This document shows positions 6,125 through 41,905 of a stretch of 64,000 bases of DNA, one piece after another. The stretch comes from Candidatus Kaiserbacteria bacterium. GTDB taxonomy: Bacteria; Patescibacteriota; Minisyncoccia; Phycocordibacterales; UBA918. The notes beneath the pieces were generated by a model that worked only from the letters and a program-made list of their open reading frames with translations, made no database searches and was not told the origin of the DNA. Made by a program: the position numbers and the translations under genes. Every line of letters begins with the position of its first letter. Within the stretch, counting starts at the first letter, position 1. The DNA is taken from the NCBI GenBank assembly GCA_019634005.1, contig JAHQWD010000002.1, forward strand, positions 128,747-192,746, given 5' to 3'.

Positions 6125-9100
6125 TTGTCAAACCGTATATACTCTATGCACTATACAAAATATATCTTTAGTCTCACCCTCCTTTTCTTTGCTGTTACTT
6201 CAGTGTACGCACAAGAGGAGGAGTTTGAGGGCATACTTATCGCCGATGTGGGAGTACAAAATGCTTCTGTGGTGTATCAAGAGGGGCATACGCTTGATGT
6301 TTTCTTCGAGTTAGTTAACGGTGAAGCAGTGCAGCCAAATATTCGCTATGCAGTGCAGGTCGTAGAAGCGACCGAAGAAGGGGATCGGATATGGGGAGAA
6401 TACACACCAGATGATGTTATCTCGCTCGCATCGAATGAACGCCTCCACAGAAATATTACTTATACAGCGCCTGCATGGCTTGATGGTATCTATGAGGTAA
6501 GGGTTATTGTAGAGAACACCGCAGGACTTCCTTTAGGCTCCGCGTTTCTTGGTGAGGTTATGTTCTCGGGAACGGGGCAGTATGTGGAGATAGACCCAGA
6601 TTCTTGTGATGTCCTCTATGATTACGAGACACCAGTGTCCCTCACCTGTCTTGCAACGAATTATTTTGACACGACACTCGATGTATCACCGCTTTCCGAG
6701 GTGTATCGAAAGACAACACGCGGGGAAGGGGTTGGGATGTTTTGGGATGAAGCAGTGCGCTATACTTTTGGCGCGGGAGAGACGAAAGAAGTAGAATTTG
6801 TGTTTGCACCACAGCCAGGATATGGAACATACGCAGCACATGCACTTCTTGTAGGCGCACAAGGTGCAGACGTTTCAAATAGAGTGCCGTATACATATAG
6901 TACGTATGCATCACCTGCGCAGATAGAGAATATTACCGCAAATGCATCGGGATATGATGAAGATGATGAGGCGGTTATTACTGTTGCGTATGCTGCTGAC
7001 GAGACAGTATTCTTTACACTTGAACTTACCGATGAAGATGGTCGTCTGTGTAGCGAACCAATTACCGATGTTCGGTTGGCATATACAGAGTCTGTGTATA
7101 CAGCGCGCACTATCATTGATCGTTCCTGTGAACATCCGACAGCATCAGTCTTCTTGACCGCAGGTACTGGCGACGTCGTTGACGCGAGTACAATCTATCT
7201 CTCTGGATTACAGGAAGAAACGGGGAGGCTCTCTTTTAGAGATTATATGATCATACTTGCCGTCATTGTTATACTTATTCTTGCATATATGCTCTATCGT
7301 CACACACACAAGGCACGTAATACAGAGACCCTGACCCTCAGTGTTCTGTTTGTAGTGCTTGCATTTGGATTCACTACCCATTTTGCCGAGGCAGGATCTT
7401 GGAGTAGTGGCTCTTCTATCAGTGGGTGTCGAAATAGCCTGCAGGGGAACATTAACAAAAGCACCTATGAACCAGGTGAGGCAATCAGAGTCTCAATGAG
7501 AACATCGGTATCCTGTAATTCGTCCGCGACCGTGAATGGTGTCCCAATTGGTTCTGTAGGAAGTCTTAAGACAAAAATGTATACAAACACGTCTGGATCG
7601 AGTGATTCTCGAACGGGCATCAATGGTAATGGATACGGAGGAAGACTTGCGAATGGTTGTTGTTGGGGAACCACACTCACTGCTCCAGGTAGAGCAGGAA
7701 GTTACAATACAAACTTTAGATCTGTTAACTATACTCAAGAGGGAACAGGGTATTCTTCAGGACGTGGTCCTGCTCCTCGGCGGTATGTAAGTCATGGAAG
7801 TATTCGGGGAAGTGAGAGGTATCGAGTAGTTGCTACGACTCCTCCTGCGCCGACCGCGTCACTTACGGCAAGTCCTTCATCTATAGAGCGGGGAGATGAG
7901 ACAACGTTGCAGTCACGATGTACAAATAGCACGAGTGCTTCGATAAGTCGTGGTGTTGGCTCAGTTTCCTCATCGACTGATAATACCGATGTTTCTCCTA
8001 CACAGAGAACGACCTATACGCTTACCTGTAGTGGTCCTGGAGGAAGTGACAATGACAGCACAACAGTTATTGTGACCGAACCTCCCGTGCCCGCTCCAAC
8101 TGCGTCACTTACGGCGAGTCCTTCATCGATTCAGGAAGGGAATAGCACCCGCCTTATTGCTCGATGTACCAATAGTAATGCGTCATCAATTAACAATGGT
8201 GTGGGAAGCCTCTCTGCGACAGGGGGGAGACCAGTTGTCTCACCTAACTCTCCGACGACGTATAGGCTCACTTGTTTTGGAGAAGAGACCGACGCAGTTG
8301 CGACCACGCGAGTCCGCGTAACTGCGACACCTCCACCTCCACCAGCAGCACCACATGCATCAATCTCTGCTTCCCCACGAAGAATCCAAGAGGGAGAGAG
8401 TACGCGGGTCCACTGGAGTTCTTCAAACGCGGTGGAGTGTCGTAGTACATCAAGTCCACTTACCACAGGAGGTGATACAGAGGGGACTCAGAACATAACC
8501 CTCAACAGAGCACAGACAAAGACCTTCAGTATCGTTTGTGAAAATAGCGCTGGTGACACAGACAGTGCCTCAACACAAGTCACTGTTGAAGAACCGAGCG
8601 AACCAAGTGGCCCAGGATCAAGTCCTTCGCCAACGGCGACACTTGAAGTGCGCAATACTACTGGAGGAGGAGGTTGGACGTCGTCAAATATCACCATTCT
8701 TCCAGGAGACCAGATTGCGTTGCGGTGGGATTCTACCAATGCAAGTGCTTGTAGCGGAAGCAATTTCAACACAGGCAGAGCGGATGACGGAACAACAACG
8801 AGTGTAAACGAACCAACCGGGGGTAATCGTACGACGTATGCGGTGACGTGTACGGGTTCTGGCGGAAGTGACTCCGATTCACTTCGTGTTACCGCACAGG
8901 GTCTCGAGCCAGATCTATCCATTTCAGATGAGGATGTACGTCAGGGGGAATCAGTGACACTTACGTACAATATGCAAGGCAACGATCCTTCTCAGTGTTC
9001 CCTTGTTGGCCCAGGCGTCTCCTACATTGCAGGATCCTTTAGTCAACAGTCAGGATCCATTGCAATCACGATTTCTGGAGACTCGACGTTTACCCTGACC

Positions 9101-16521: not shown

Positions 16522-16977
16522 TCATTTTTTTAAATAGTGTTCTTTCGCATGGCAGTTTGGGCATAAGAGTTCTAAATTGGAAAGAGAATTGTGGTCTCGG
16601 TTCCTATCTATGTGGTGGACTATCAGTATCTCTAAAAGGTCATAATTACAGCGTTCGCATTGTGCTCCTCGTTCTTTTACGATTCGAGCCTTCAAAGAAC
16701 GTTGGGTCTTTACGTTATCTTTAAGGCGTCCCGTTTTATATGAGATTCCAGCACGGTTTTTATTTGCGCACCGTCTACTGCACGTTTTCTTGTTTGCACT
16801 TGCGAGTATTGGTTTCTTACAGATGAGACAGGGGTGTTCTTTTCTCTGAGACTTTCCATAACAAGTCTGGCTGCAAAAAAGACCACGTGTACTTCTTTTT
16901 ATTTCTGCTGGACGACGATAGATCTCTTTTCCACAAACGGTGCACGTAGTATTAGGTTTTCTTCTATGCTCAGACAC
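16522..16977 (-). CDS. HNH endonuclease with zinc-ribbon motifs
   Basis: Several CxxC pairs, plus an HNH core ILIVHHIDRNRDHN…LLCPNCH. Confidence 0.65.
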   Translation of the reverse strand: MSEHRRKPNTTCTVCGKEIYRRPAEIKRSTRGLFCSQTCYGKSQRKEHPCLICKKPILASANKKTCSRRCANKNRAGISYKTGRLKDNVKTQRSLKARIVKERGAQCERCNYDLLEILIVHHIDRNRDHNSLSNLELLCPNCHAKEHYLKK

Positions 16978-24991: not shown

Positions 24992-25018
24992 ACCACCCAC
25001 GAGGTGGTTTTTTGTTTA
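24992..25018 (+). terminator. Rho-independent terminator after rplS
   Basis: ccacccacgaggtgg followed by ttttttg. Confidence 0.6.
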
Positions 25019-25731
25019 TAAATAGCAATCCTGATTTGGTATGGAGTGATATACTGTCGGGAGTGGGTAAGCGTGGACCAAAACCTAAAAACAATATAGA
25101 TACAACGTGGCGACCAGAGTTGGCATATGTTGTTGGCCTTTTGGCTGCGGACGGATGCATGTCTCCCGCAGGGCATCTTATAGACTTAACATCTAAGGAC
25201 AGGGAACAGTTAGAGAATTTTTCAAAGTGCGTTGGTATTACAAATAAGATAGGTCGTAAGCGGTCAGGGTATAACGATGGGGGAGTATATTTACGCGTCC
25301 AGTTTAAAAGTGTTCGATTCTATGAGTTTTTGGGATCCGTGGGTTTAACCCCAAATAAATCTCATACAATTGGTTCGCTCGCTATTCCCGATGAATACTT
25401 TTGGGATTTTCTACGTGGTCTCTATGATGGAGATGGTTCATCAAACGCATATTGGGATCCAAGGTGGAAGTCTAGTTATATGTTTTATACGAATTTTGTA
25501 TCAGCAAGCCCTAATTTTATAGTCTGGCTTCGGGAAGAGATTGAAAAGAGGATTAGTATGTCTGGATCCATGACAGGACCAAGCACGTGCAGAGTTATTC
25601 AGTTGAAATATGCAAAAGATGCTTCACGTGAAATTTTAAGGGGCATGTACTACGCAGAGAACGTTACTTGTTTGTCCAGAAAGAAGTTGAAAGTAGAGAA
25701 AATTCTTGCTACAGTTGGCGAGCGTCTTTGA
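25012..25731 (+). CDS. Free-standing double-motif LAGLIDADG homing endonuclease
   Basis: Motif 1 VVGLLAADGC and motif 2 LRGLYDGDGS are about 100 aa apart. There is no in-frame ATG at the 5' end (TTG start); start uncertain. Confidence 0.6.
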   Translation: MFINSNPDLVWSDILSGVGKRGPKPKNNIDTTWRPELAYVVGLLAADGCMSPAGHLIDLTSKDREQLENFSKCVGITNKIGRKRSGYNDGGVYLRVQFKSVRFYEFLGSVGLTPNKSHTIGSLAIPDEYFWDFLRGLYDGDGSSNAYWDPRWKSSYMFYTNFVSASPNFIVWLREEIEKRISMSGSMTGPSTCRVIQLKYAKDASREILRGMYYAENVTCLSRKKLKVEKILATVGERL

Positions 25732-30420: not shown

Positions 30421-33255
30421 ATGATTACTGAGATTACCAAGCGCAACGGCACCACGGTTCCATTTGATGAGAAAAAAATCACTGTGGTGATGAAAAAAGC
30501 ATTTGCGGCAGAAAGTGTTTCTGTCACTGATGAACTTTTACAGCAAATGACCGACCGCGTGGTCGCAAAACTTGTTATTCGCTGCGAGGATGAGAAGCAA
30601 CAGCCGACAGTAGAGCAGGTGCAGGATCTTGTGGAAGAGACATTGATGGAGCGGGGGTACTTCGACGTTGCGAAGGCCTTTATTTTGTATCGGTTTAAAC
30701 AAACAGAGGAACGTAAACAGGAGGTGGTTAAGGAGATTGAGGAGAATCGTCTCATGATCGAGCGAACTGATGGTTCAACCGAGCAGTTCTCTCGTGAGAA
30801 GATGCATGAGTACATCTCTCGATTCATTGAAGGATATGAGAAAGAGATTGATGTCGAGGGCATTGTGTCGCAGGTAGAGCGAGAAGTCTATGACGGTATC
30901 AAGACTGCCGAGATGGCAAAGGTAGTGACGCTCATTCTCCGTGCACGCATCGAAGAAGATCCTGCGTACTCCTATGTAGCAGCACGTCAGCTTAATGACC
31001 GCGTCTGTACACAGGCAGTGGGCACCACGATCGGTGTTGGAAAGAGCGAGTACCAAGCGCAGTATCGGTCTGCATTCATCAAGAACATGAAGCACGGCGT
31101 AGAGGAGAAAAAGATTGATTCAAAAATGTTGGAGTTCAATCTAGAACTTCTTGCAGAGAAGATGGAGCCGTCGCGGGACGATCTCTTCAAGTATCTTGGT
31201 ATCGAGACACTTCACGATCGATATTTCATTAAGCGAAATGACGGTACGGTCATGGAAACACCACAAATGATGTGGATGCGTGTGGCGATGGGACTCTGTC
31301 TGAACGAAGAAAAAAAGGAAGACAAGGCGCTCGAGTTCTATAATATGATGTCGACACTTCGATTTGTGCCATCAACACCAACACTCTTCCATTCTGGAAC
31401 ACCACATCCACAACTTTCGTCATGTTATCTCAACGTTGTTGAGGATGATCTCAACCACATCTTCAAAGTGTTTGGAGATAACGCACAGCTTTCTAAGTGG
31501 GCGGGAGGTATCGGAACTGCGTGGACAAAACTGCGTGGTACAGGAGCACTGATTAAGAAAGCACACATCAGTTCACAGGGTGTGGTGCCATTCCTGAAGA
31601 TTGCGAACGATGTAACGGTTGCGATCAACCGTTCAGGACGCCGTCGTGGCGCAACTGCAGTGTACATGGAGAACTGGCACTACGATTTTCTTGACTTCCT
31701 CGAGCTTCGTAAAAACACAGGAGACGAGCGCCGCCGAACACACGACATCAACACGGCAGCATGGATCTCAGATCTCTTTATGAAGCGTGTGAAAGAAAAT
31801 GGCACATGGACACTTTTCTCTCCAGACGAAGCGATAGATCTTACCGAGACATACGGAAAGAAGTTTGAAGAACTCTACACCAAGTATGAGGACATGGCAG
31901 CACGCGGGGAAATTAAACTTCACAAGACAATGCCTGCTGTAGATCTCTGGAAGAAGATGCTCGGCATGCTCTTTGAGACAGGGCATCCGTGGATCACGTT
32001 CAAGGATCCATCAAACATCCGTTCGCCACAGGATCATGTAGGAGTTGTGCACAATTCTAACCTTTGTACAGAGATTACACTCAATACGTCTGAAGAAGAG
32101 ACTGCGGTGTGTAACCTTGGGTCAGTAAACTATAAAGAACATGTCGTGAATGGTCGCTTTGACGAAGCAAAGGTGCGTGAGACGGTAACGACTGCGATGC
32201 GCATGCTTGATAACGTGATCGACCTCAACTTCTACCCAACGAAGGAGGCGAAGAACTCCAATATGAAGCATCGTCCAGTAGGGCTTGGAATCATGGGGTT
32301 CCAAGATGCGCTCTACATGCTTGATATTCCGTTTGCGTCAGAGAAGTGTGTGGAATTCGCAGATTCATCAATGGAGATGATCTCACACGCGGCAATTCTC
32401 GCATCAAGCGAGCTCGCACGAGAGCGAGGTGCGTACGAGAGTTTTGCGGGATCGAAGTGGGATCGAGGATTGCTTCCCGTTGATACTATCGCGCTTCTCG
32501 AGGAAGAGCGTGGTATGAAGACAGACGCGACCCGTACAGAGCGTCTCGACTGGAGTGCAGTCCGAGAATCTGTTCAGAAGCACGGTATGCGAAACAGTAA
32601 CTGTATGGCAATTGCGCCGACCGCGACTATCTCTAACATCGCGGGATCTATCCCAGGAAACGAGCCAATCTACAAAAATATTTACGTGAAGAGTAATATT
32701 TCTGGAGACTTCATCGTGGTAAATACGTATCTTGTGGACGCACTGAAACAGCGCGGACTTTGGAACAAGGATATGCTCGACATCCTCAAGTACAACGATG
32801 GAAGTGTGCAGGATATAGATCTTATCCCACAGGATATTAAAGACATGTACAAAGAGACTTTCGAGATTGATATGAAGTGGCTCGTACGTGCTGCGGTTGC
32901 TCGTGGTAAGTGGATCGATCAGTCACAGTCTCTCAATATCTTCTATTCAGGAACCAGTGGTAAGGAGATCAGCGACCTCTACCTCTACGCGTGGGAGGCA
33001 GGAGTGAAGACGACCTACTACCTCCGTTCACTTGGAGCATCACAGGTAGAGAAGGCGACTGTCGGACAGAGTGGAAGTCAGACACGAAAGAAGAAGGAGG
33101 GAGGCATGACTCCAGCAGACGCGCAGGCTGAGTCAGGCACTCCATCTCCAATGAGTCAGGAGGAGATCGAAAGCGCAAAAGTTGCGATACAGAAGAAATC
33201 TGGGGGCGTGAACCTTCACGTTGCAGAGGATTCCATCTGTGAATCATGTGAGTAA
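30421..33255 (+). CDS. Ribonucleotide reductase large (alpha) subunit with an N-terminal ATP-cone. Class I/II-type catalytic core and a C-terminal CxxC tail.
   Basis: ATP-cone (ITKRNG..VPFD), SNLCTEI, VCNLGSVN and C-terminal CESCE. No small-subunit gene is adjacent, so the class (nrdA vs nrdJ) is unresolved. Confidence 0.85.
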   Translation: MITEITKRNGTTVPFDEKKITVVMKKAFAAESVSVTDELLQQMTDRVVAKLVIRCEDEKQQPTVEQVQDLVEETLMERGYFDVAKAFILYRFKQTEERKQEVVKEIEENRLMIERTDGSTEQFSREKMHEYISRFIEGYEKEIDVEGIVSQVEREVYDGIKTAEMAKVVTLILRARIEEDPAYSYVAARQLNDRVCTQAVGTTIGVGKSEYQAQYRSAFIKNMKHGVEEKKIDSKMLEFNLELLAEKMEPSRDDLFKYLGIETLHDRYFIKRNDGTVMETPQMMWMRVAMGLCLNEEKKEDKALEFYNMMSTLRFVPSTPTLFHSGTPHPQLSSCYLNVVEDDLNHIFKVFGDNAQLSKWAGGIGTAWTKLRGTGALIKKAHISSQGVVPFLKIANDVTVAINRSGRRRGATAVYMENWHYDFLDFLELRKNTGDERRRTHDINTAAWISDLFMKRVKENGTWTLFSPDEAIDLTETYGKKFEELYTKYEDMAARGEIKLHKTMPAVDLWKKMLGMLFETGHPWITFKDPSNIRSPQDHVGVVHNSNLCTEITLNTSEEETAVCNLGSVNYKEHVVNGRFDEAKVRETVTTAMRMLDNVIDLNFYPTKEAKNSNMKHRPVGLGIMGFQDALYMLDIPFASEKCVEFADSSMEMISHAAILASSELARERGAYESFAGSKWDRGLLPVDTIALLEEERGMKTDATRTERLDWSAVRESVQKHGMRNSNCMAIAPTATISNIAGSIPGNEPIYKNIYVKSNISGDFIVVNTYLVDALKQRGLWNKDMLDILKYNDGSVQDIDLIPQDIKDMYKETFEIDMKWLVRAAVARGKWIDQSQSLNIFYSGTSGKEISDLYLYAWEAGVKTTYYLRSLGASQVEKATVGQSGSQTRKKKEGGMTPADAQAESGTPSPMSQEEIESAKVAIQKKSGGVNLHVAEDSICESCE

Positions 33256-33315: not shown

Positions 33316-34224
33316 ATGAGGAATACATTCTCTTTCATAGCATTGGTACTCATTATCGCTCTTGGGTACTTTTTTCTTTCTCCTGCACCATGTGGTATTC
33401 CACTTTCATACCGTATTGGAACAATTGATGAAAACTTTGCACTGACAGAGAGTCAGGCTCGTGCAGCGCTCGCTGATGCTGAGGCAGTATGGGAAGAAGG
33501 TGTGGGGAAAGATCTCTTCGTCTATGATTCCGAAGCATTCTTTACCGTGAACTTTGTCTATGATGAGCGACAGGCAGTTACAGACGAAGAACGAGAACTA
33601 CGACATGAATTGGATACCCAGAAAAATCTCAACGACAGTATCAAAGGAGAGTATGATGCGTACGCTGCAGAGTATGAAACTCTCAAGGCAGAATATGAAA
33701 AACGACAACAGAAATACGCACGGGAACTAAAGGCATACAATGAGACCGTTGCAGAATGGAATGAAAAAGGTGGTGCACCAGAGGAAGTGTATGATCAATT
33801 AAATGAAGAACAGGAGCGTCTCACAAGAGAGGGGGAGGCAATAAACAAAATGGTTGATGAGCTCAATGTGCTCGTAGAGAAATTGAATGAGTTGGGAACG
33901 CAAGGAGATTTGCTGGTAGACTCATATAATGAGATTGTTGATGATTACAACGATCGGTTTAATACTGAGCGGGAGTTTACCCAGGGAGACTATCAGGGAG
34001 ATTTCATCAATATTTACGAGTACGAAAGTCCCGAGGAATTACGCATTGTTCTTGCACATGAGTTAGGACATGCACTTTCACTCGATCACGTAGAAGGTTC
34101 GCAATCCATTATGTATTTCTTTATGGGTGAACAGAGTCTCTCAAAAGGACTCACGGTAGAGGATGTAGAAGCCTTTGAGGCAACATGTTCGCCAAAATGG
34201 TATCATAGACAGCGTTACTACTAG
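33316..34224 (+). CDS. Membrane-anchored protein with a coiled-coil region and a C-terminal metzincin-type zinc-protease motif
   Basis: N-terminal TM. Central heptad-rich region. HELGHALSLDH (HExxHxxxxxH spacing) followed by a Met-turn SIMYFF. Confidence 0.5.
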   Translation: MRNTFSFIALVLIIALGYFFLSPAPCGIPLSYRIGTIDENFALTESQARAALADAEAVWEEGVGKDLFVYDSEAFFTVNFVYDERQAVTDEERELRHELDTQKNLNDSIKGEYDAYAAEYETLKAEYEKRQQKYARELKAYNETVAEWNEKGGAPEEVYDQLNEEQERLTREGEAINKMVDELNVLVEKLNELGTQGDLLVDSYNEIVDDYNDRFNTEREFTQGDYQGDFINIYEYESPEELRIVLAHELGHALSLDHVEGSQSIMYFFMGEQSLSKGLTVEDVEAFEATCSPKWYHRQRYY

Positions 34225-35015: not shown

Positions 35016-35216
35016 TATAGTTTTCTTCCCGAAACCACGGACTTTGTGGGCGGTTGAAAACTAGATGACCACAATGCGTTTACTCATTGTGGTGAGTAGG
35101 GGAGAGGCGCTTCAATTCTGAAGCGCCTTTTCTATTACTTTACAATCTCAACCAGTATGGTAATATGGCTCTACATCGCCCCGAGGGGCGTTTTAATTTT
35201 GGATAATTTTCTAAAT

Positions 35217-35396
35217 ATGAGTCGATTCATCAACTATATCAATGATACAAGAGCAGAACTCAAACACGTGTCATGGCCAACAGGAAAACAGTCAGTAACT
35301 GCAACTATTCTTGTGGTACTTATCTCCATCTTCGTGGCCATCTTTACTGGCGCGCTTGATTATCTCTTTGCGCAAGTGCTCACCCTCTTTATCTAA
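35217..35396 (+). CDS. secE: Preprotein translocase subunit SecE
   Basis: 59 aa, single TM, immediately upstream of nusG. Start at the internal ATG of ORF 35157..35396. Confidence 0.7.
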   Translation: MSRFINYINDTRAELKHVSWPTGKQSVTATILVVLISIFVAIFTGALDYLFAQVLTLFI

Positions 35397-35414: not shown

Positions 35415-35960
35415 ATGGCAAAGCAACATACAGACGGAATGCGTCACTGGTACGCAATTCACACATACTCTGGATATGAGAACGCGGTAGCACGTAATCT
35501 CAAGCAACGTATCGACTCACTTGGTATGCAGGACAAGATTTTTGATGTCGTGGTGCCAACCGAAAAGAAGATTCGCGTGAAAGGAGGGAAGCGTGTGACT
35601 GAAGAGGAGCGTGTGTACCCAGGGTATGTCCTTGTGGACATGATCGTAACTGACGAATCATGGTACGTAGTGCGTAATACACCACGTGTAACTGGATTCG
35701 TGGGAAGTGGGACACAGCCTGTACCACTTTCACAAGAAGAGCTTGATTCACTCATGAATCGTATGCATGCAGAAACACCGAAGCATAAGGTGGATCTTGC
35801 AATTGACGACATCGTTATGATCGTTGATGGTCCGTTTAAGGAGCTTGAAGGGAAGGTTGGCGAAGTAGATGAAGAACACGGAAAGGTGAAGGTACTGGTC
35901 TCAATGTTTGGTCGAGAGACACCTGTAGAATTGGACTTCCTTCAGGTAAAGAAGGTCTAA
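35415..35960 (+). CDS. nusG: Transcription termination/antitermination factor NusG
   Basis: NGN domain (WYAIHTYSGYE) and a C-terminal KOW motif. Confidence 0.85.
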   Translation: MAKQHTDGMRHWYAIHTYSGYENAVARNLKQRIDSLGMQDKIFDVVVPTEKKIRVKGGKRVTEEERVYPGYVLVDMIVTDESWYVVRNTPRVTGFVGSGTQPVPLSQEELDSLMNRMHAETPKHKVDLAIDDIVMIVDGPFKELEGKVGEVDEEHGKVKVLVSMFGRETPVELDFLQVKKV

Positions 35961-36036: not shown

Positions 36037-36462
36037 ATGGCAAAAGAATTACTCAACAAAATTAAGGTACAGGCAGTTGGTGGAAAGGCAACACCAGCGC
36101 CTCCTCTTGGACCAATCCTTGGTCAGGCAGGTATTAATATCGGAGAGTTCGTTAACCAGTTTAACGAGCAGACTCGTGACCGCATGGGAGAGGTGGTGCC
36201 AGTAGAGATCAGTATTTACGAAGATCGAAGCTTTGACTTCATCGTAAAGACGTCTCCAGCATCACGCCTTATCCTTAAGAAAATTGGAAAGCCGAAAGGA
36301 TCTGGAAAGAACCTTGTCTCAAAGGCTGGTGAAATCACCAAGGCACAGATCAAGGAGATCGCAGAAGAGAAAATGCAGGATCTTTCTGCAAACGACATCG
36401 ACGCTGCGATGAAAATCATCGAAGGAACCTGTCGTTCAATGGGCGTTCACGTAGTGGACTAG
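36037..36462 (+). CDS. rplK: 50S ribosomal protein L11
   Basis: MAKELLNKIKVQAVGGKATPAPPLGPILGQAGINI is the canonical L11 N-terminus. Confidence 0.9.
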   Translation: MAKELLNKIKVQAVGGKATPAPPLGPILGQAGINIGEFVNQFNEQTRDRMGEVVPVEISIYEDRSFDFIVKTSPASRLILKKIGKPKGSGKNLVSKAGEITKAQIKEIAEEKMQDLSANDIDAAMKIIEGTCRSMGVHVVD

Positions 36463-36476
36463 CCATAACCTCTCAC

Positions 36477-36507
36477 AAAACCCCGCATATGCGGGGTTTT
36501 GTGTTTT
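36477..36507 (+). terminator. Rho-independent terminator directly after rplK
   Basis: Perfect palindrome ccccgcatatgcgggg followed by ttttgtgttttt. Confidence 0.65.
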
Positions 36508-36570
36508 TCAATATATGTGGTATAAAAGTCGCTGGTTTGGAGTAGAGAAACAAAAACAGGAGTTCTTTTA

Positions 36571-37230
36571 ATGGAAGATATTACGGTCAAGGAGAATGAG
36601 TGGGGAGACCTGTGTTCATGTGTTGAAGTTGAGGCACGAAAAGGTAGAGGGAAAAAACGAGTGAAACAGGTCGTTTTGATTCTCCGACTCGATCCTTGCG
36701 GGGACCAGGTTGGCCTGTACCATTCCGGCGATGCCAGCTGTGGTAAGTATACGTTGCCGCAGGGATGTGTCATTCAGAAGGACTACAAAAAAGCACGTGA
36801 TCCAAGGATCCCAGCTGATATCCTTCGTCTTGCCACTGAGCGTGTGCTTAGACAGAAGCTTGACGTTTCTGTTACAGAGATGTATTACCTTGCCTCGTTT
36901 CGGTGTGAAAAACCAGATCGTGTCGTGAGCGACAATATCGAAGTGGTGGATTATCACGTGATGATCACTATTGCTCGAGAACACAAGACGAGTCCTCAGA
37001 AGGAAGGGAGCAAACACCAGTGGCTCCACGTATCGCATCTCGAGAGCATCTTCGGTAACGATGTCGACCATCAGTTCATGAGCAAACAGAAGAAGGATAT
37101 GATTCTTTCTGCTCTGAAACGGTTTGCAGCGAAAAGCGATGAGCTCCTTGACTGTGTGCATCCGAGACTTCGGCACGCGTCTTGGATAAGGCGCTTCAGG
37201 GAGCTGAACGATTCCGTGAAGGCAGCGTAG
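36571..37230 (+). CDS. Hypothetical protein with a degenerate Nudix-like N-terminal region (GKYTLPQG) and several Cys. No intact Nudix box.
   Basis: 219-aa ORF. The GxWxxPGG-like segment lacks REx2EE. Weak evidence. Confidence 0.3.
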   Translation: MEDITVKENEWGDLCSCVEVEARKGRGKKRVKQVVLILRLDPCGDQVGLYHSGDASCGKYTLPQGCVIQKDYKKARDPRIPADILRLATERVLRQKLDVSVTEMYYLASFRCEKPDRVVSDNIEVVDYHVMITIAREHKTSPQKEGSKHQWLHVSHLESIFGNDVDHQFMSKQKKDMILSALKRFAAKSDELLDCVHPRLRHASWIRRFRELNDSVKAA

Positions 37231-37254
37231 CTACGAATCTTCCTCTTTAAAACA

Positions 37255-37284
37255 CCGGCGGGACGTATTCCGCCGGTTTTTGCT
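37255..37284 (+). terminator. Rho-independent terminator
   Basis: ccggcgggacgtattccgccgg followed by tttttg. Confidence 0.55.
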
Positions 37285-37340
37285 TGCAAAAATATTCTTT
37301 GTATAGTTAGATTCATACAGTTTGTGATAAGGAGATTAAA

Positions 37341-37742
37341 ATGAAAGTCTATGTTGGTATGGGGCTCACAAATGCCCCGAAAGCATTCCGAGACATCTTT
37401 AATGGTGAATTCAAGGATATGCTCCGTGCCGTTCCCGATGTTAAGGTTCTCGATTTCATTGGCCTTGAAAATGGTACTGAGGAGGATGTGTACCTCCATG
37501 ACCGTAAGTGTACTGAGGAAGCAGACCTTTGCATCTTCATTTGCGACCATCCTTCAATTGGTCTCGGCATGGAGATTGCATTCCGTCTTTTCGCTCGGCG
37601 TCCGATGAAATGCTTTGTGCGCTCAGACGTCAAGATCACTCGCATGGTGACTGGTATGTGTAAGGTTGAAGGGGTTGTGTTGCACCGATATGTAACTCCT
37701 AAGGACATTATTCGCACATGTTTTCCTGCCGAAACTGTGTGA
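37341..37742 (+). CDS. Nucleoside 2-deoxyribosyltransferase-like (NDT/LOG-like Rossmann) protein
   Basis: MKVYVGMGL N-terminus and EADLCIFICDHPSIGLGMEIAF parallel the NDT pattern aDavva.ldg.D.GTafEiGya. Confidence 0.4.
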   Translation: MKVYVGMGLTNAPKAFRDIFNGEFKDMLRAVPDVKVLDFIGLENGTEEDVYLHDRKCTEEADLCIFICDHPSIGLGMEIAFRLFARRPMKCFVRSDVKITRMVTGMCKVEGVVLHRYVTPKDIIRTCFPAETV

Positions 37743-37756
37743 AGAAGATGATGATC

Positions 37757-38236
37757 CTACTTCTCCAAAGTGAACCACTCATAAGAGAGACCGTCTTGGT
37801 CTCTCTTTTCTTTTTTAATAACATTTGTGAATGTATCATACTCTGGGAAAAAGGTATCTGCCTCAGGATCCTCAGCATCAATGATTGTGAGATAGAGTCT
37901 GTCAGTATAGGGAAGTGCCATCTCGTAAATCTGTGCACCACCGAAGATAAATATCTCATCAGCACCTTCAGATTCCTTTGCTTTTTCAAGGGCTTCTTCC
38001 AGAGAGGTTGTCACAATACACCCTTCAGCTTCATATGAAGGATCTCTCGTGACAACGATATTGGTTCGGTTGGGAAGAGGGCGTCCAATGGACTCATAGG
38101 TCTTCCTTCCCATAACGATCGGGTGTCCAGTAGTCAGATCTTTTACCCGCTTTAAATCATCAGAAATACGCCAAATGAGGTCTCCATTCTTTCCTAATTC
38201 CCGATTCTTACCAATTGCAGCAATAATGCCAATCAT
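37757..38236 (-). CDS. folA: Dihydrofolate reductase
   Basis: MIGIIAAIGKNRELGKNGDLIW…VMGRKTYESIG are canonical DHFR motifs. Confidence 0.9.
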   Translation of the reverse strand: MIGIIAAIGKNRELGKNGDLIWRISDDLKRVKDLTTGHPIVMGRKTYESIGRPLPNRTNIVVTRDPSYEAEGCIVTTSLEEALEKAKESEGADEIFIFGGAQIYEMALPYTDRLYLTIIDAEDPEADTFFPEYDTFTNVIKKEKRDQDGLSYEWFTLEK

Positions 38237-38301: not shown

Positions 38302-38982
38302 ATGCTCACTATGGCACACTACGAAGTAGAGATAAAAAGTTTGTTGGGCTCAAAAGAGAATGCAGAAGCGCTGAAAACACAGATGTGTGAGAAAGATCCT
38401 GCGTGTAACTTGGTCTCACAGAATAAGCAACTCAACCACTATTTCGAGGGAGGAGATATCAATACACTCTATGAAAAGGTTGAACATCTGTTTAATGAAG
38501 AAGATAAAGAAAAGCTCAAGCACGTCATTGAAGCAGGGAAGAGCTACTCTATCCGCTCACGACAGAAGGACGAGAACATCTATCTGGTCGTGAAGGCGTC
38601 TGTTGACGAAGGAAGTAGTGCAAATACGGTTTCTCGTTTGGAGTTTGAAGAGGAGGTGAACATTTCCCTCGATGAACTCGACAAACTACTCCTTGATGCA
38701 AGCTTCACGTATCAGGCAAAGTGGTCTCGTGAACGTGAGGAATATGAGTACAAGGGAGTGAACGTGTGTCTTGATAAGAATGCGGGGTATGGATATCTTG
38801 CAGAGTTTGAGAAGGTCTTCGATGACGAAGATGTGAACGAGGCACGCAAGGAACTTGATGTGCTTATGGCTGAACTTGGGGTAGTGGAGTTACCGCAAGA
38901 TCGTCTCGAGCGCATGTTCGCACACTATAATGCGAATTGGGAGGATTATTACGGGACGGATAAGACATTTACCATAGACTAG
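38302..38982 (+). CDS. CYTH-domain protein (triphosphate tunnel metalloenzyme / CyaB-like)
   Basis: YEVEIKSLL matches the CYTH ExExK signature. Acidic residues lie later in the beta-strands. Confidence 0.5.
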   Translation: MLTMAHYEVEIKSLLGSKENAEALKTQMCEKDPACNLVSQNKQLNHYFEGGDINTLYEKVEHLFNEEDKEKLKHVIEAGKSYSIRSRQKDENIYLVVKASVDEGSSANTVSRLEFEEEVNISLDELDKLLLDASFTYQAKWSREREEYEYKGVNVCLDKNAGYGYLAEFEKVFDDEDVNEARKELDVLMAELGVVELPQDRLERMFAHYNANWEDYYGTDKTFTID

Positions 38983-38983
38983 T

Positions 38984-39553
38984 ATGTTTCTTTCAGACAA
39001 AGACATTTTAGCGGAAGTAAAAGAAGGGAATATTACCCTAGAGCCTTTTAGTAAAAAACAGCTACAGCCTGCAACGTATGATATTCGTCTTGGTAACACG
39101 TTCATCGTAAACGATGTGCACTCTACAAAAGCAATTGATCCTGCAAAGGGAGTGTATCCGCAGACACAGACTATCGAGGTGGCTGACGGAAAGGAGTTCG
39201 TACTCCATCCAGGGGTAAGTATCCTTGGGTACTCTAAAGAGAAGTTTGGATCGGATCAGTACCTCATTGAGGTGAATGGAAAATCTAGTCTTGCACGCAT
39301 TGGACTTATCGTGCACAACTCTGCGAGCATTGTGAATCCAGGGCACTATCTCAACATCGCACTTGAGCTCTGTAATCTCAACAATGTTCCGATCGTACTT
39401 CGTCCTGGGATGCAGATTGCACAATTGTCATTCTCGACACTCTCCTCACACACAAAGCAGAACTATCGACAAACGGGGCGCTACAGTAAGAATAACTTTG
39501 CGTCATACGTACCACCAAAAGCAAAGAAAAAGGTAGCTAAGAAGAAAAAATAA
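38984..39553 (+). CDS. dcd: dCTP deaminase with a Lys-rich C-terminal tail
   Basis: MFLSDKDIL…PATYDIRLG matches the Dcd/dUTPase fold. Tail KAKKKVAKKKK. Confidence 0.8.
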   Translation: MFLSDKDILAEVKEGNITLEPFSKKQLQPATYDIRLGNTFIVNDVHSTKAIDPAKGVYPQTQTIEVADGKEFVLHPGVSILGYSKEKFGSDQYLIEVNGKSSLARIGLIVHNSASIVNPGHYLNIALELCNLNNVPIVLRPGMQIAQLSFSTLSSHTKQNYRQTGRYSKNNFASYVPPKAKKKVAKKKK

Positions 39554-39554
39554 T

Positions 39555-40574
39555 ATGAGCGATACACGACATCCAGAATATCAATATCTCGATCTCTGCC
39601 AGGACATCCTCGATAATGGTGCGGATAAGGAATTGTTCTTCAATGATGTCGTACTTAAAGAATACGAAGAAAAAGGGGAGAAACCTCCATTCATTCGTTC
39701 AGTGTTTGGACGACAGATCCGTTTTGATCTGTCTGATGGTTTCCCGCTCCTTACAACTAAGAAGACATTCTGGCGCGGTATCACCACAGAACTACTCTGG
39801 TTCCTCTCAGGAAGTTCCAACCTCAAGCCACTGGTGGATATGAACAACCATATCTGGGACGAGTGGGCATGGAAGATGTATCACATGTGGGCAGAAGAAC
39901 ATGCTCCTGAAGAAGATATGACACAAGAAGAGTTCATTGCAAAAATCCAAGAGCTCCCTGAAGAAGATCCATTCGTACAAAAGTGGGGAGACCTTATTAC
40001 GATCTATGGCCGCATGTGGCGACGGTGGCCAGCGAAAGATGGACGCGAAATAGATCAGCTTGGGTGGGTTATTGAAGGATTGAAAACAAAACCAGATCGA
40101 AAGTCGTATGTAGTCTCTGCGTGGAATCCAGATTTCATTTACGCGATGGCGTCAGAGGGGCAGAAGTCTCATGTGCCACCGTTCTGTCACACCATGTTCC
40201 AGTTCCAGGTTGCAAATGGGAAGTTAAATCTTGGTCTCTATCAGCGTTCGGCAGACCTTTTCCTCGGAGTGCCGTTTAATATTGCAAGTTACGCACTGCT
40301 TCTTAAGATGGTGTCACAGGTTGTCGGTATCCCACCAGGAGAGTTTGTGCATTCATTTGGAGATGTCCATATTTATTCAAATCACTTTGATCAGGTGAAA
40401 GAGCAGCTCTCACGAGAACCACTTCCATTCCCTGAAGTAAAGCTCAATCCAGACGTTAAGAATATCGACGACTTTACCCTTGAGGATATTACACTCGAGA
40501 ACTATGAGTCACACCCTCCACTTCGAGCTGAAATTGCAAACATTGGTGGTTTTGAAGAGAAGAAGAAATCATAA
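39555..40574 (+). CDS. thyA: Thymidylate synthase (ThyA, long form with insertions)
   Basis: R.FG.QIRFDL…FPLLTTKK…W.ELLWFL and catalytic CHT(M)FQF. Confidence 0.9.
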   Translation: MSDTRHPEYQYLDLCQDILDNGADKELFFNDVVLKEYEEKGEKPPFIRSVFGRQIRFDLSDGFPLLTTKKTFWRGITTELLWFLSGSSNLKPLVDMNNHIWDEWAWKMYHMWAEEHAPEEDMTQEEFIAKIQELPEEDPFVQKWGDLITIYGRMWRRWPAKDGREIDQLGWVIEGLKTKPDRKSYVVSAWNPDFIYAMASEGQKSHVPPFCHTMFQFQVANGKLNLGLYQRSADLFLGVPFNIASYALLLKMVSQVVGIPPGEFVHSFGDVHIYSNHFDQVKEQLSREPLPFPEVKLNPDVKNIDDFTLEDITLENYESHPPLRAEIANIGGFEEKKKS

Positions 40575-40642: not shown

Positions 40643-41905
40643 ATGTACGACTACATCAAAAACCAAGATACCGATATCTTCTCTGCACTCGAAGGAGAAG
40701 AAAAGCGCGAAGCTGAAGGCATAGAGCTGATTCCAAGTGAAAACTATGTCTCTCGTGCAGTGCGTGAGGCAAACGGTTCTGTCTTTACAAACAAATATTC
40801 TGAAGGATACCCAGGAAAGCGGTACTACGGAGGACAAGATTATACAGACGAAGTAGAGCGCATTGCTATAGAGCGCGCGAAGGAACTCTTTAACTGTAAG
40901 TTTGCGAACGTGCAGCCACTCTCTGGCGCACCTGCGAATGTCGCCATGTATTTTGCACTTATGGAGCCAGGAGATACGGTGCTTGGTATGGATCTCTCAC
41001 ACGGTGGACACCTGACACATGGACATCCAACCACATGGATTAACAAGATCTTCAATTTTGTTCGATACAAGATGAAGGATACTGAAACAGGGGAGATAGA
41101 CTATGAAGCACTCCGTGAGGTGGCGCTCAGAGAAAAACCAAAGATTATTCTTGCAGGGTTCTCTGCATATAGTCGGGAGCTGGATTACGCAAAGTTTGTA
41201 GAAATTGCAAAAGAAGTTGGTGCGTACACAGTGGCAGACATGGCGCATGTTGCAGGACTGATTGCAGGAGGAGTCCTCCGTAATCCATTTGAAGATGGAT
41301 TTGATGTCATTACCACCACCACACACAAAACACTTCGTGGTCCTCGCGGCGGTATGATCCTGACTCGAGAGAATGAAGAAATTGCAAAAAAAATAGACAA
41401 GGCAGTCTTTCCTGGACTTCAAGGAGGGCCGCATATGAATGTTATTGCCGCGAAGGCGGTTGCATTTGGTGAGGCACTGACACCAGCATTTAAGGAGTAT
41501 GCAACGCAAGTGCTTAAAAATGCAAAAGCCATGGAAGCGGTCTTTAAGAAAGAGAACATCCGCATGCTTGGCGGGGGAACGGACAATCACCTGATTCTTG
41601 CTGATGTGTTCGGATCGCTTGGTGTCACTGGACAAGAGGCGGAGACAGTCTTGGATGCTGTAGGCATTACACTTAACAAGAACATGATCGCAGATGAGTC
41701 ACGCACTGCGATGGATCCATCAGGGATCCGCTTCGGAACACCTGCAATGACCACACGTGGTATGAAAGAGGAAGAGGCAACACGTATTGCAGAGATTATG
41801 ATTGCAGCGATGCGAGAAAAAGATAATGAAGAGAGGCTGTCTGTGTTGAAAGAAGAAGTGAAGAAATTGTGCCTCACGTTTCCTGTACCAGAATCCTTTG
41901 TCTAA
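40643..41905 (+). CDS. glyA: Serine hydroxymethyltransferase
   Basis: Active-site TTTTHKTLRGPRGG and SHGGHLTHG. Confidence 0.9.
   Translation: MYDYIKNQDTDIFSALEGEEKREAEGIELIPSENYVSRAVREANGSVFTNKYSEGYPGKRYYGGQDYTDEVERIAIERAKELFNCKFANVQPLSGAPANVAMYFALMEPGDTVLGMDLSHGGHLTHGHPTTWINKIFNFVRYKMKDTETGEIDYEALREVALREKPKIILAGFSAYSRELDYAKFVEIAKEVGAYTVADMAHVAGLIAGGVLRNPFEDGFDVITTTTHKTLRGPRGGMILTRENEEIAKKIDKAVFPGLQGGPHMNVIAAKAVAFGEALTPAFKEYATQVLKNAKAMEAVFKKENIRMLGGGTDNHLILADVFGSLGVTGQEAETVLDAVGITLNKNMIADESRTAMDPSGIRFGTPAMTTRGMKEEEATRIAEIMIAAMREKDNEERLSVLKEEVKKLCLTFPVPESFV

Follow-up and report, generated by a model that had tools for sequence, protein, structure and literature searches.

Which genes fill the place behind the ribosomal protein gene rplK where rplA should follow, and what might their products do? 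The question is raised by a 64-kb window (the whole stretch of DNA that was analysed, with a GC content of 46%) from a Candidatus Kaiserbacteria bacterium, a tiny-genome member of the Parcubacteria within the Candidate Phyla Radiation (CPR). Between positions 36,463 and 37,742 of this window lie two open reading frames (ORFs), the 219-aa ORF1 and the 133-aa ORF2; proteins identical to those of the window occur in public collections under the NCBI locus tags KTR10_01245 and KTR10_01250 (Candidatus Kaiserbacteria bacterium, 215-kb contig). The layout given by the original prediction, with an intact secE-nusG-rplK and a terminator behind it, then the genes for the 219-aa and 133-aa proteins separated by another terminator, and finally a convergent folA and the genes for deoxythymidine 5'-monophosphate (dTMP) synthesis, is borne out, coordinates included. 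Based on the folds, motif states, synteny and terminators described below, the interval is probably the junction between the secE-nusG-rplK unit and a deoxynucleotide/thymidylate neighbourhood, with ORF1 a Nudix pseudoenzyme and ORF2 an N-glycosidase of the DNPH1/MilB type. Both proteins add an uncharacterised new member to a superfamily that is already known, and there is no sign of a new kind of system.

About 32 close relatives of ORF2 were found, all of them 130-143 aa in length. Within this family PF05014 is matched weakly by 23 of the 32 members and PF15891 by 5. When the family profile was compared with the PDB, the best match was Rcl (2.6e-7), followed by DNPH1 (1.3e-6) and MilB, a hydrolase of cytidine 5'-monophosphate (CMP) and hydroxymethyl-CMP (7.6e-6); a nucleoside 2-deoxyribosyltransferase (NDT; 3.3e-3) and the CMP N-glycosidase BcmB (3.7e-3) were also matched. 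The AlphaFold (AF2) model of ORF2 displays a Rossmann-like fold of the NDT type at a predicted local distance difference test (pLDDT) score of 93. Its top 50 Foldseek matches consist throughout of DNPH1, BcmB, Rcl and MilB, at E values of about 1e-6 to 1e-5 and template modelling (TM) scores of 0.65-0.8.

Five residues (D54, S72, G74, G76 and E78) are invariant in the 32 sequences of the ORF2 family, and two more (Y4 and T100) are nearly so. An hhalign comparison of the family with human DNPH1, the sequence of which is identical to the 8os9 segment over the aligned part, pairs D54 with D80, S72 with S98, G74 with G100, E78 with E104, T100 with S128 and M102 with M130. In DNPH1, D80 is the general acid and E104 the nucleophile, and the 5'-phosphate is held by S98, G100 and S128' (PMC10483697). 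The Glu nucleophile and the Asp general acid of DNPH1 are thus conserved in the ORF2 family as E78 and D54, and the contacts to the 5'-phosphate as S72, G74 and T100. Y4 is located on strand beta-1. In MilB, changing Phe17 on this strand to Tyr shifts the preference from CMP to deoxycytidine 5'-monophosphate (dCMP) (PMC4081090); by its position on beta-1, the corresponding residue in ORF2 is a Tyr.

Because of these profile, fold and motif matches, ORF2 is read as a DNPH1/MilB-type N-glycosidase of 2'-deoxynucleoside 5'-monophosphates (dNMPs). With DNPH1 and Rcl, which provide both its best profile match and its best fold match, it shares a PS-x-G-x-G-x-E motif with the Glu nucleophile, the Asp that serves as general acid, the phosphate contacts made by Ser and Gly, a second-subunit Ser/Thr-x-Met motif and a size of about 130-150 aa; going by position, a Tyr on beta-1 is also common to them. 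It differs from them in sequence (identity about 15-18%), in a phosphate loop that is longer and unlike theirs, in having Thr for Ser128, and in its setting, which is bacterial (CPR) and linked to dcd, folA and either thyA or thyX. With MilB, BcmB and BlsM it has fold and motif in common at the subfamily level. For this group there is also a precedent for linkage to ThyA homologues, such as MilA and BcmA: ThyA-like genes often accompany those for MilB homologues (PMC4081090). F16-R17 of ORF2, which come after a Pro, recall the P-F-R of MilB. In contrast to these enzymes, ORF2 has, by its place on beta-1, Tyr and not Phe at the position selecting between ribo- and deoxyribonucleotides, its AP-xx-FR spacing is unlike the G-G-P-F-R of MilB, and the thyA beside it scores as a bona fide thymidylate synthase (354 bits) and not as an antibiotic-cluster hydroxymethylase. 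ORF2 most likely hydrolyses pyrimidine dNMPs to the free base and deoxyribose 5-phosphate.

ORF1 is more difficult to place. On its own it has no Pfam match at E <= 1 (NUDIX included) and none in NCBIfam or PADLOC. A word-indexed search with ORF1 yielded a sole relative, P0002, at 51% identity; a small alignment including the syntenic genes of two relatives brought in six more proteins, one of which has a Pfam NUDIX match; and when 1.84 billion representatives were scanned in full with HMMER, 69 proteins with lengths near 190-200 aa were recovered (E <= 1e-3). Among the 43 members that were aligned, 24 pass the Pfam NUDIX model (PF00293), with a best value of 7.9e-16. The homology of ORF1 to PF00293 is transitive only, as it is these 24 relatives that are matched and not ORF1 itself. 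The AF2 model built on the 43-sequence alignment (pLDDT 86) was compared with the PDB by Foldseek, and every one of the top 50 matches is to a Nudix protein, with NUDT12, MutT, RppH and MTH1 among them; the best TM-score (normalised to the target) reaches 0.79, against MutT. ORF1 is therefore a Nudix-fold protein and not a hidden uL1.

ORF1 does not conform to the Nudix box, GX5EX7REUXEEXGU. Here LPQG is followed by an insertion and then by ADILRLATERVLRQKLDV, with ERVLRQKLD in place of REUxEExGU and with R-V and Q-K at the RE and EE positions. The REUxEE positions as a whole read R-V-L-R-Q-K, which leaves the metal-binding helix without an acidic residue, and the insertion of about 12 aa after LPQG interrupts the G-x5-E segment. 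The original prediction of a degenerate Nudix-like segment that has lost REx2EE is therefore supported by the ERVLRQKL box, by the modelled fold and by the NUDIX matches of the family. Both the degeneracy and the insertion recur in P0002 and P0041, and the box is degenerate in other ways in P0035-38. It is intact in many members, among them P0042 (QGGVEPGEGLAEAAVREIHEETG; REIHEETG), P0046, P0048 and P0065 and the family members from two of the related loci considered below, L015 and L023. When compared to Nudix hydrolases in general (PF00293; MutT, RppH, NudB, NUDT12), ORF1 has the same alpha/beta/alpha fold, its homologues pass the Pfam model, and its LPQG represents the loop before the Nudix helix; it differs in the destroyed box, the insertion, the lack of an own match to a hidden Markov model (HMM) and about 65 aa of additional helical sequence at the C-terminus, which bear the family motif MSxxK. 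Outside the box, Q64, H129, W151, M170 and K174 are conserved in the family.

ORF1 is also the fastest-evolving gene of its neighbourhood. Its identity to the orthologous proteins is 51% and 35% in two related genomes in which rplK, nusG and dcd are 93-95% identical, and its nonsynonymous substitutions per site (dN) amount to 0.46-0.68 versus 0.03-0.06 for rplK and nusG, about a tenfold difference. This dN is well below the saturated synonymous value (dS) of at least 1, and thus the gene is constrained rather than decaying. ORF1 and its closest relatives, having lost the metal-binding glutamates, are most likely no longer pyrophosphohydrolases; as it is still under purifying selection, ORF1 has probably been kept as a pseudoenzyme with a nucleotide-binding or regulatory role. 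It most likely stems from a CPR-specific subfamily of Nudix hydrolases occupying the same slot, the pseudoenzyme having been derived in place.

Contigs of relatives were obtained from the homologues and from a scan of GTDB species representatives and were annotated with local profiles, giving 24 loci (L numbers). In about 17 independent Patescibacteria genomes the gene order is ribonucleotide reductase (RNR), M10 peptidase, SIMPL, secE, nusG, rplK, ORF1 family, in some a CofE-like ligase, ORF2 family, folA, a set comprising dcd, thyA, dCMP deaminase, tmk, dUTPase and MazG, and glyA. The gene for the RNR large subunit marks the upstream end of this nucleotide-metabolism neighbourhood, a position that is kept in related loci. 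The window, L003, L006, L008, L013, L015, L016, L017 and L023 all carry both the ORF1 and the ORF2 family in the slot; in L021 they are ~4 kb apart and no rplK was detected nearby. The ORF2 family occurs without an ORF1-family gene in L002, L004, L014, L018 and L024, and the ORF1 family without ORF2 in L001 and L010. As each family is found alone, an obligate pairing of Nudix-like and NDT-like genes does not hold.

In the Paceibacteria locus L018 (11651-13012, minus strand), the ORF2-family gene adjoins a dcd of the bifunctional type, ThyX is present (PF02511, 1.2e-13), and neither ThyA nor FolA was detected. Because ORF2 is retained here beside dcd and ThyX, the linkage is to the metabolism of deoxyuridine 5'-monophosphate (dUMP) and dTMP and not to folate as such. 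The CofE-like gene (PF01996) is situated between rplK and the ORF2-family gene in L003 (7289-7999), L004 (7109-7957) and L006 (3554-4264) and is absent from the window. For the L003 copy the best NCBIfam match is TIGR04132, 'putative folate metabolism gamma-glutamate ligase' (1.6e-53, below the cutoff).

What of rplA itself? The L1-lacking 'OD1-L1' Parcubacteria are credited to Brown et al. 2015 in PMC5220378 and PMC7304191. In tblastn searches of the 64-kb window, E. coli L1, L10 and L7/L12 gave no match, and the E. coli L11 control found rplK at 9e-38. With E. coli L1, phmmer and tblastn gave no match in the window or in the 24 fetched loci. L1, L10 and L12 are undetectable in the loci of the approximately 17 syntenic Patescibacteria relatives, where rplA never follows rplK. 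Since there is no rplA after rplK here or in the relatives, the secE-nusG-rplK unit ends at a conserved terminator. A subgroup of Parcubacteria without L1 has been reported (PMC5220378, PMC7304191, bioRxiv 10.1101/2022.01.07.475337), and the suggestion made at the outset that the absence of uL1 beside uL11 is a trait of such a subgroup agrees with both the window and this literature. The window, from a Kaiserbacteria genome with no rplA locally behind rplK, is a candidate for the OD1-L1 group. Going by the literature, lack of rplA is already familiar in the lineage and says nothing new about the ribosome.

ORF1 and ORF2 are probably monocistronic genes, each bracketed by terminators (see the table). 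Terminator-like sites number 7 in the region versus 3.0 +/- 1.8 in shuffled sequence. L001 and L008 keep a terminator at the position of the rplK one, although the bases of the stem differ, the terminator after ORF1 has an equivalent in L008 (6668-6692), and the hairpin between ORF2 and folA has equivalents in L008 (7227-7251) and L001 (10731-10751). This last hairpin has a folding energy of -15.7 kcal/mol on the plus strand (z = -5.3) and -16.2 kcal/mol on the minus strand. ORF1 and ORF2 each have an AGGAG Shine-Dalgarno sequence 8-9 nt before the ATG, and their N-termini agree with those of the homologues. The extended -10-like element upstream of ORF1 might be its promoter; a consensus promoter scan made no call at this site, and the GGTAT core of the element is conserved in L001 and L008 together with the ribosome-binding site of ORF1. 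A scan of the window at the Rfam gathering thresholds returned tRNAs alone.

Features of the rplK-folA interval and its flanks (positions in the 64-kb window)
Feature	Position	Strand	Evidence or remark
Ribonucleotide reductase large subunit	30421..33255	+	ORF list; syntenic homologues with Pfam ATP-cone, Ribonuc_red_lgN, lgC
M10-like metallopeptidase, coiled-coil middle region	33316-34224		Upstream of secE
secE	35157..35396	+	Pfam SecE 4.4e-16
nusG	35415..35960	+	Pfam NusG 1.3e-29 plus KOW
rplK (uL11)	36037..36462	+	Pfam Ribosomal_L11_N 2.1e-25, Ribosomal_L11 7.6e-24
Intrinsic terminator after rplK	36474..36503	+	13-bp stem, 8 GC pairs, then TTTTT; -23.6 kcal/mol, z = -7.5
Extended -10-like TGGTATAAA, upstream of ORF1	36518..36526	+	Read by eye from sequence; putative promoter
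ORF1, 219 aa, GKYTLPQG present	36571..37230	+	Nudix fold, degenerate Nudix box
Intrinsic terminator after ORF1	37254..37277	+	10-bp stem, 7 GC pairs, then TTTTT; -18.6 kcal/mol, z = -3.1
ORF2, 133 aa, EADLCIFICDHPSIGLGMEIAF present	37341..37742	+	DNPH1/Rcl- and MilB-like N-glycosidase candidate
folA (dihydrofolate reductase)	37757..38236	-	Pfam DHFR_1 1.9e-51; convergent with ORF2
Hairpin terminator of convergent ORF2/folA	37783..37807	both	11-bp stem, then T-run; overlaps folA 3' end
CYTH-domain (triphosphate tunnel) protein	38302..38982	+	Pfam CYTH 4.7e-10; syntenic in L001, L008
dcd (dCTP deaminase-like)	38984..39553	+	Pfam DCD 3.8e-36
thyA (thymidylate synthase, long form, 339 aa)	39555..40574	+	NCBIfam TIGR03284 6e-106, 354 bits versus cutoff 108
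glyA (serine hydroxymethyltransferase)	40643..41905	+	ORF list; syntenic homologues with Pfam SHMT

Several points weigh against the functions proposed here. ORF2 alone reaches no Pfam or NCBIfam threshold. Its Y4 would correspond to Tyr24 of DNPH1, the residue that partners the Glu and favours 2'-deoxy substrates, by position on strand beta-1 only, the profile alignments spanning only residues 46-121; the loop after beta-1 (GMGLTxAPxxFR) is unlike the GSIRGG of DNPH1 and the GGPFR of MilB, so that the substrate could differ; and the second phosphate contact has Thr for Ser, a conservative change. As for ORF1, dN/dS is only rough and the dN ratios alone are usable, because dS is saturated (>1, and undefined for some genes), and since Q64, H129, W151 and K174 are conserved family-wide the protein might retain activity. 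A true NDT, exchanging bases between deoxynucleosides for salvage, is an unlikely identity for ORF2, although the superfamily is the same, 23 of the 32 family members match PF05014 weakly, one JGI homologue is named 'nucleoside 2-deoxyribosyltransferase', and NDT structures are among the PDB matches at 3e-3. In that profile search DNPH1/Rcl and MilB beat NDT by 3-4 orders of magnitude, in Foldseek they occupy the top 50 ranks with BcmB, and the invariant S72 and G74 and near-invariant T100 match Ser98, Gly100 and Ser128', with which DNPH1 binds the 5'-phosphate. ORF2 thus has its nearest counterparts in the monophosphate N-glycosidases of the DNPH1/MilB type rather than in true NDTs or LOG; of the NDT/LOG-like character first ascribed to it, the NDT-superfamily fold stands and the LOG part does not. 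It is similarly doubtful that ORF1 is a still-active Nudix-type hydrolase using non-canonical residues, which with ORF2 would form a sanitation pathway from dNTP via dNMP to base and deoxyribose 5-phosphate. Catalytic members of its family do adjoin ORF2-family genes in the same slot (L015 and L023), the residues outside the box, M170 among them, are conserved family-wide, and the gene is still constrained, but the metal-binding helix of ORF1 (R-V-L-R-Q-K) is without any acidic residue, the insertion of about 12 aa splits the G-x5-E segment, and the NUDIX HMM does not match even at E <= 1.

Two further explanations concern the origin of the slot. Nudix and NDT/SLOG-like folds are present in some defence systems. 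In addition, ORF1 and ORF2 evolve faster than their neighbours and each is bracketed by terminators, all of which would suit a small genomic island with a module for phage defence or for the processing of nucleotide signals, as the original prediction considered. We regard this as very unlikely. The GC content of the two genes (0.45-0.49, against 0.46 for the window) is the same as that of the flanks, their immediate surroundings showed neither an integrase nor repeats nor a tRNA, and their slot is syntenic in about 17 related genomes, so that they do not constitute an island; a genomic island or horizontal insert was rejected for these reasons. PADLOC has no match for ORF1 or ORF2 at E <= 1, and LOG (PF03641), SLOG and TIR are found neither in Pfam scans of ORF2 and its 32 relatives nor among the 23 PDB profile matches and the top 50 Foldseek matches of ORF2. 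No relatives were obtained when IMG/VR viral contigs were scanned with the ORF2 family, the two families each occur alone, and the neighbours in all loci are housekeeping genes for deoxynucleotide and thymidylate metabolism. The other suggestion made at the outset, that of salvage enzymes, is supported and fits the data, including the lineage-conserved deoxynucleotide/thymidylate context. Least probable of all, and extremely so, is that ORF1 replaces uL1 in this lineage or is a very divergent uL1 at the former rplA site. It does lie directly downstream of rplK in genomes without rplA there, it is near L1 in size, basic (isoelectric point 8.9) and without its enzymatic motif. However, it has a Nudix fold, with L1 absent from its structural matches, which rules out a divergent uL1. 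Moreover, canonical catalytic Nudix enzymes belong to the same family in the same slot, no ORF1-family gene was detected after rplK in L002, L004, L018 and L024 where rplA is missing too, the transcription unit is insulated by its own terminator, and evolution ~10x faster than that of rplK is unlike a core ribosomal protein.

Some of the neighbouring genes show features of their own. rplK, which closes the secE-nusG-rplK unit, encodes a protein 47% identical to E. coli L11, and glyA is 86-88% identical to the genes of L001 and L008. The thyA of the window is 93% identical to that of L008 but only 44% and 30% identical to those of L001 and L003, where it lies on the opposite strand of an otherwise syntenic locus. 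This fall in identity and the strand switch amid synteny suggest that thyA has been replaced within the conserved neighbourhood. The M10-like metallopeptidase keeps its position upstream of secE in all relatives and is fast-evolving too, with a dN of 0.30-0.40 versus L001 and L008. An RNR small subunit with an N-terminal ATP-cone is encoded in L002 (1076-2389) and L004 (1-1159); the window has instead a single 944-aa RNR of the large-subunit type with ATP-cone. In L016, nusG and rplK are separated by the insertion (6846-7407) of a gene for a HicA toxin together with its NikA-like partner of the ribbon-helix-helix kind. The nusG and rplK matches of L002/L012 (6281-7899 of JAWKSR010000004.1) are split across reading frames, which points to frameshifts or assembly errors in this metagenome-assembled genome. 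Elsewhere in the window, rplS and tRNA-Leu flank a 239-aa ORF (25012-25731, plus strand) whose product has a 'GLLAADGC' motif like that of LAGLIDADG proteins, and a Cys-rich 151-aa ORF adjoins tRNA-Ser (16522-16977, minus strand); both may be free-standing genes of the homing-endonuclease-like kind.

The preferred explanation, a junction carrying a Nudix pseudoenzyme and a DNPH1/MilB-type N-glycosidase, can be put in terms of a mechanism. The left unit, secE-nusG-rplK, halts at the conserved intrinsic terminator. The right unit comprises RNR upstream and folA, CYTH, dcd, thyA and glyA downstream, with ORF1 and ORF2 as its probably monocistronic members; in relatives this neighbourhood adds tmk, dUTPase, MazG, dCMP deaminase and the CofE-like folate glutamate ligase. 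For ORF2 we infer the substrate, a dimeric active site and the physiological role. A dimer would bind a pyrimidine 2'-deoxynucleoside 5'-monophosphate via Ser72, Gly74 and Thr100' of the partner subunit; Glu78, positioned by Tyr4, would attack C1', with Asp54 serving as general acid, and the products would be the free base and deoxyribose 5-phosphate. In a nucleotide scavenger, such an enzyme would work alongside the dTMP pathway, either removing dNMPs that are unwanted or modified or recycling dNMPs.

For two 'hypothetical proteins' that are not recognised by Pfam, NCBIfam or PADLOC models, the analysis provides an assignment at the superfamily level and places both within a strikingly conserved deoxynucleotide/thymidylate neighbourhood of Parcubacteria. 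The ORF1 family is probably a clean example of an enzyme that turned into a pseudoenzyme in place. As Parcubacteria depend on scavenged nucleotides, a DNPH1-like enzyme beside thyA or thyX is a concrete candidate for sanitation of the nucleotide pool or recycling of deoxyribose. A more far-reaching possibility, to which we give little credence at present, is that ORF2 represents a family of dNMP N-glycosidases of the DNPH1/MilB kind that has gone unrecognised, extends across the CPR, is firmly tied to the thymidylate cluster and clears modified pyrimidine nucleotides with ORF1 as partner. If true, the targets would be compounds such as derivatives of 5-hydroxymethyl-dUMP or -dCMP in nucleotides that the cell scavenges from the DNA of its host or of phages, and the fast-evolving Nudix or pseudo-Nudix partner ORF1 would deliver or sense the substrate. 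The pair would then be a bacterial counterpart of the human DCTD-DNPH1 axis that sanitises the pool, and might also restrict phages with hypermodified bases.

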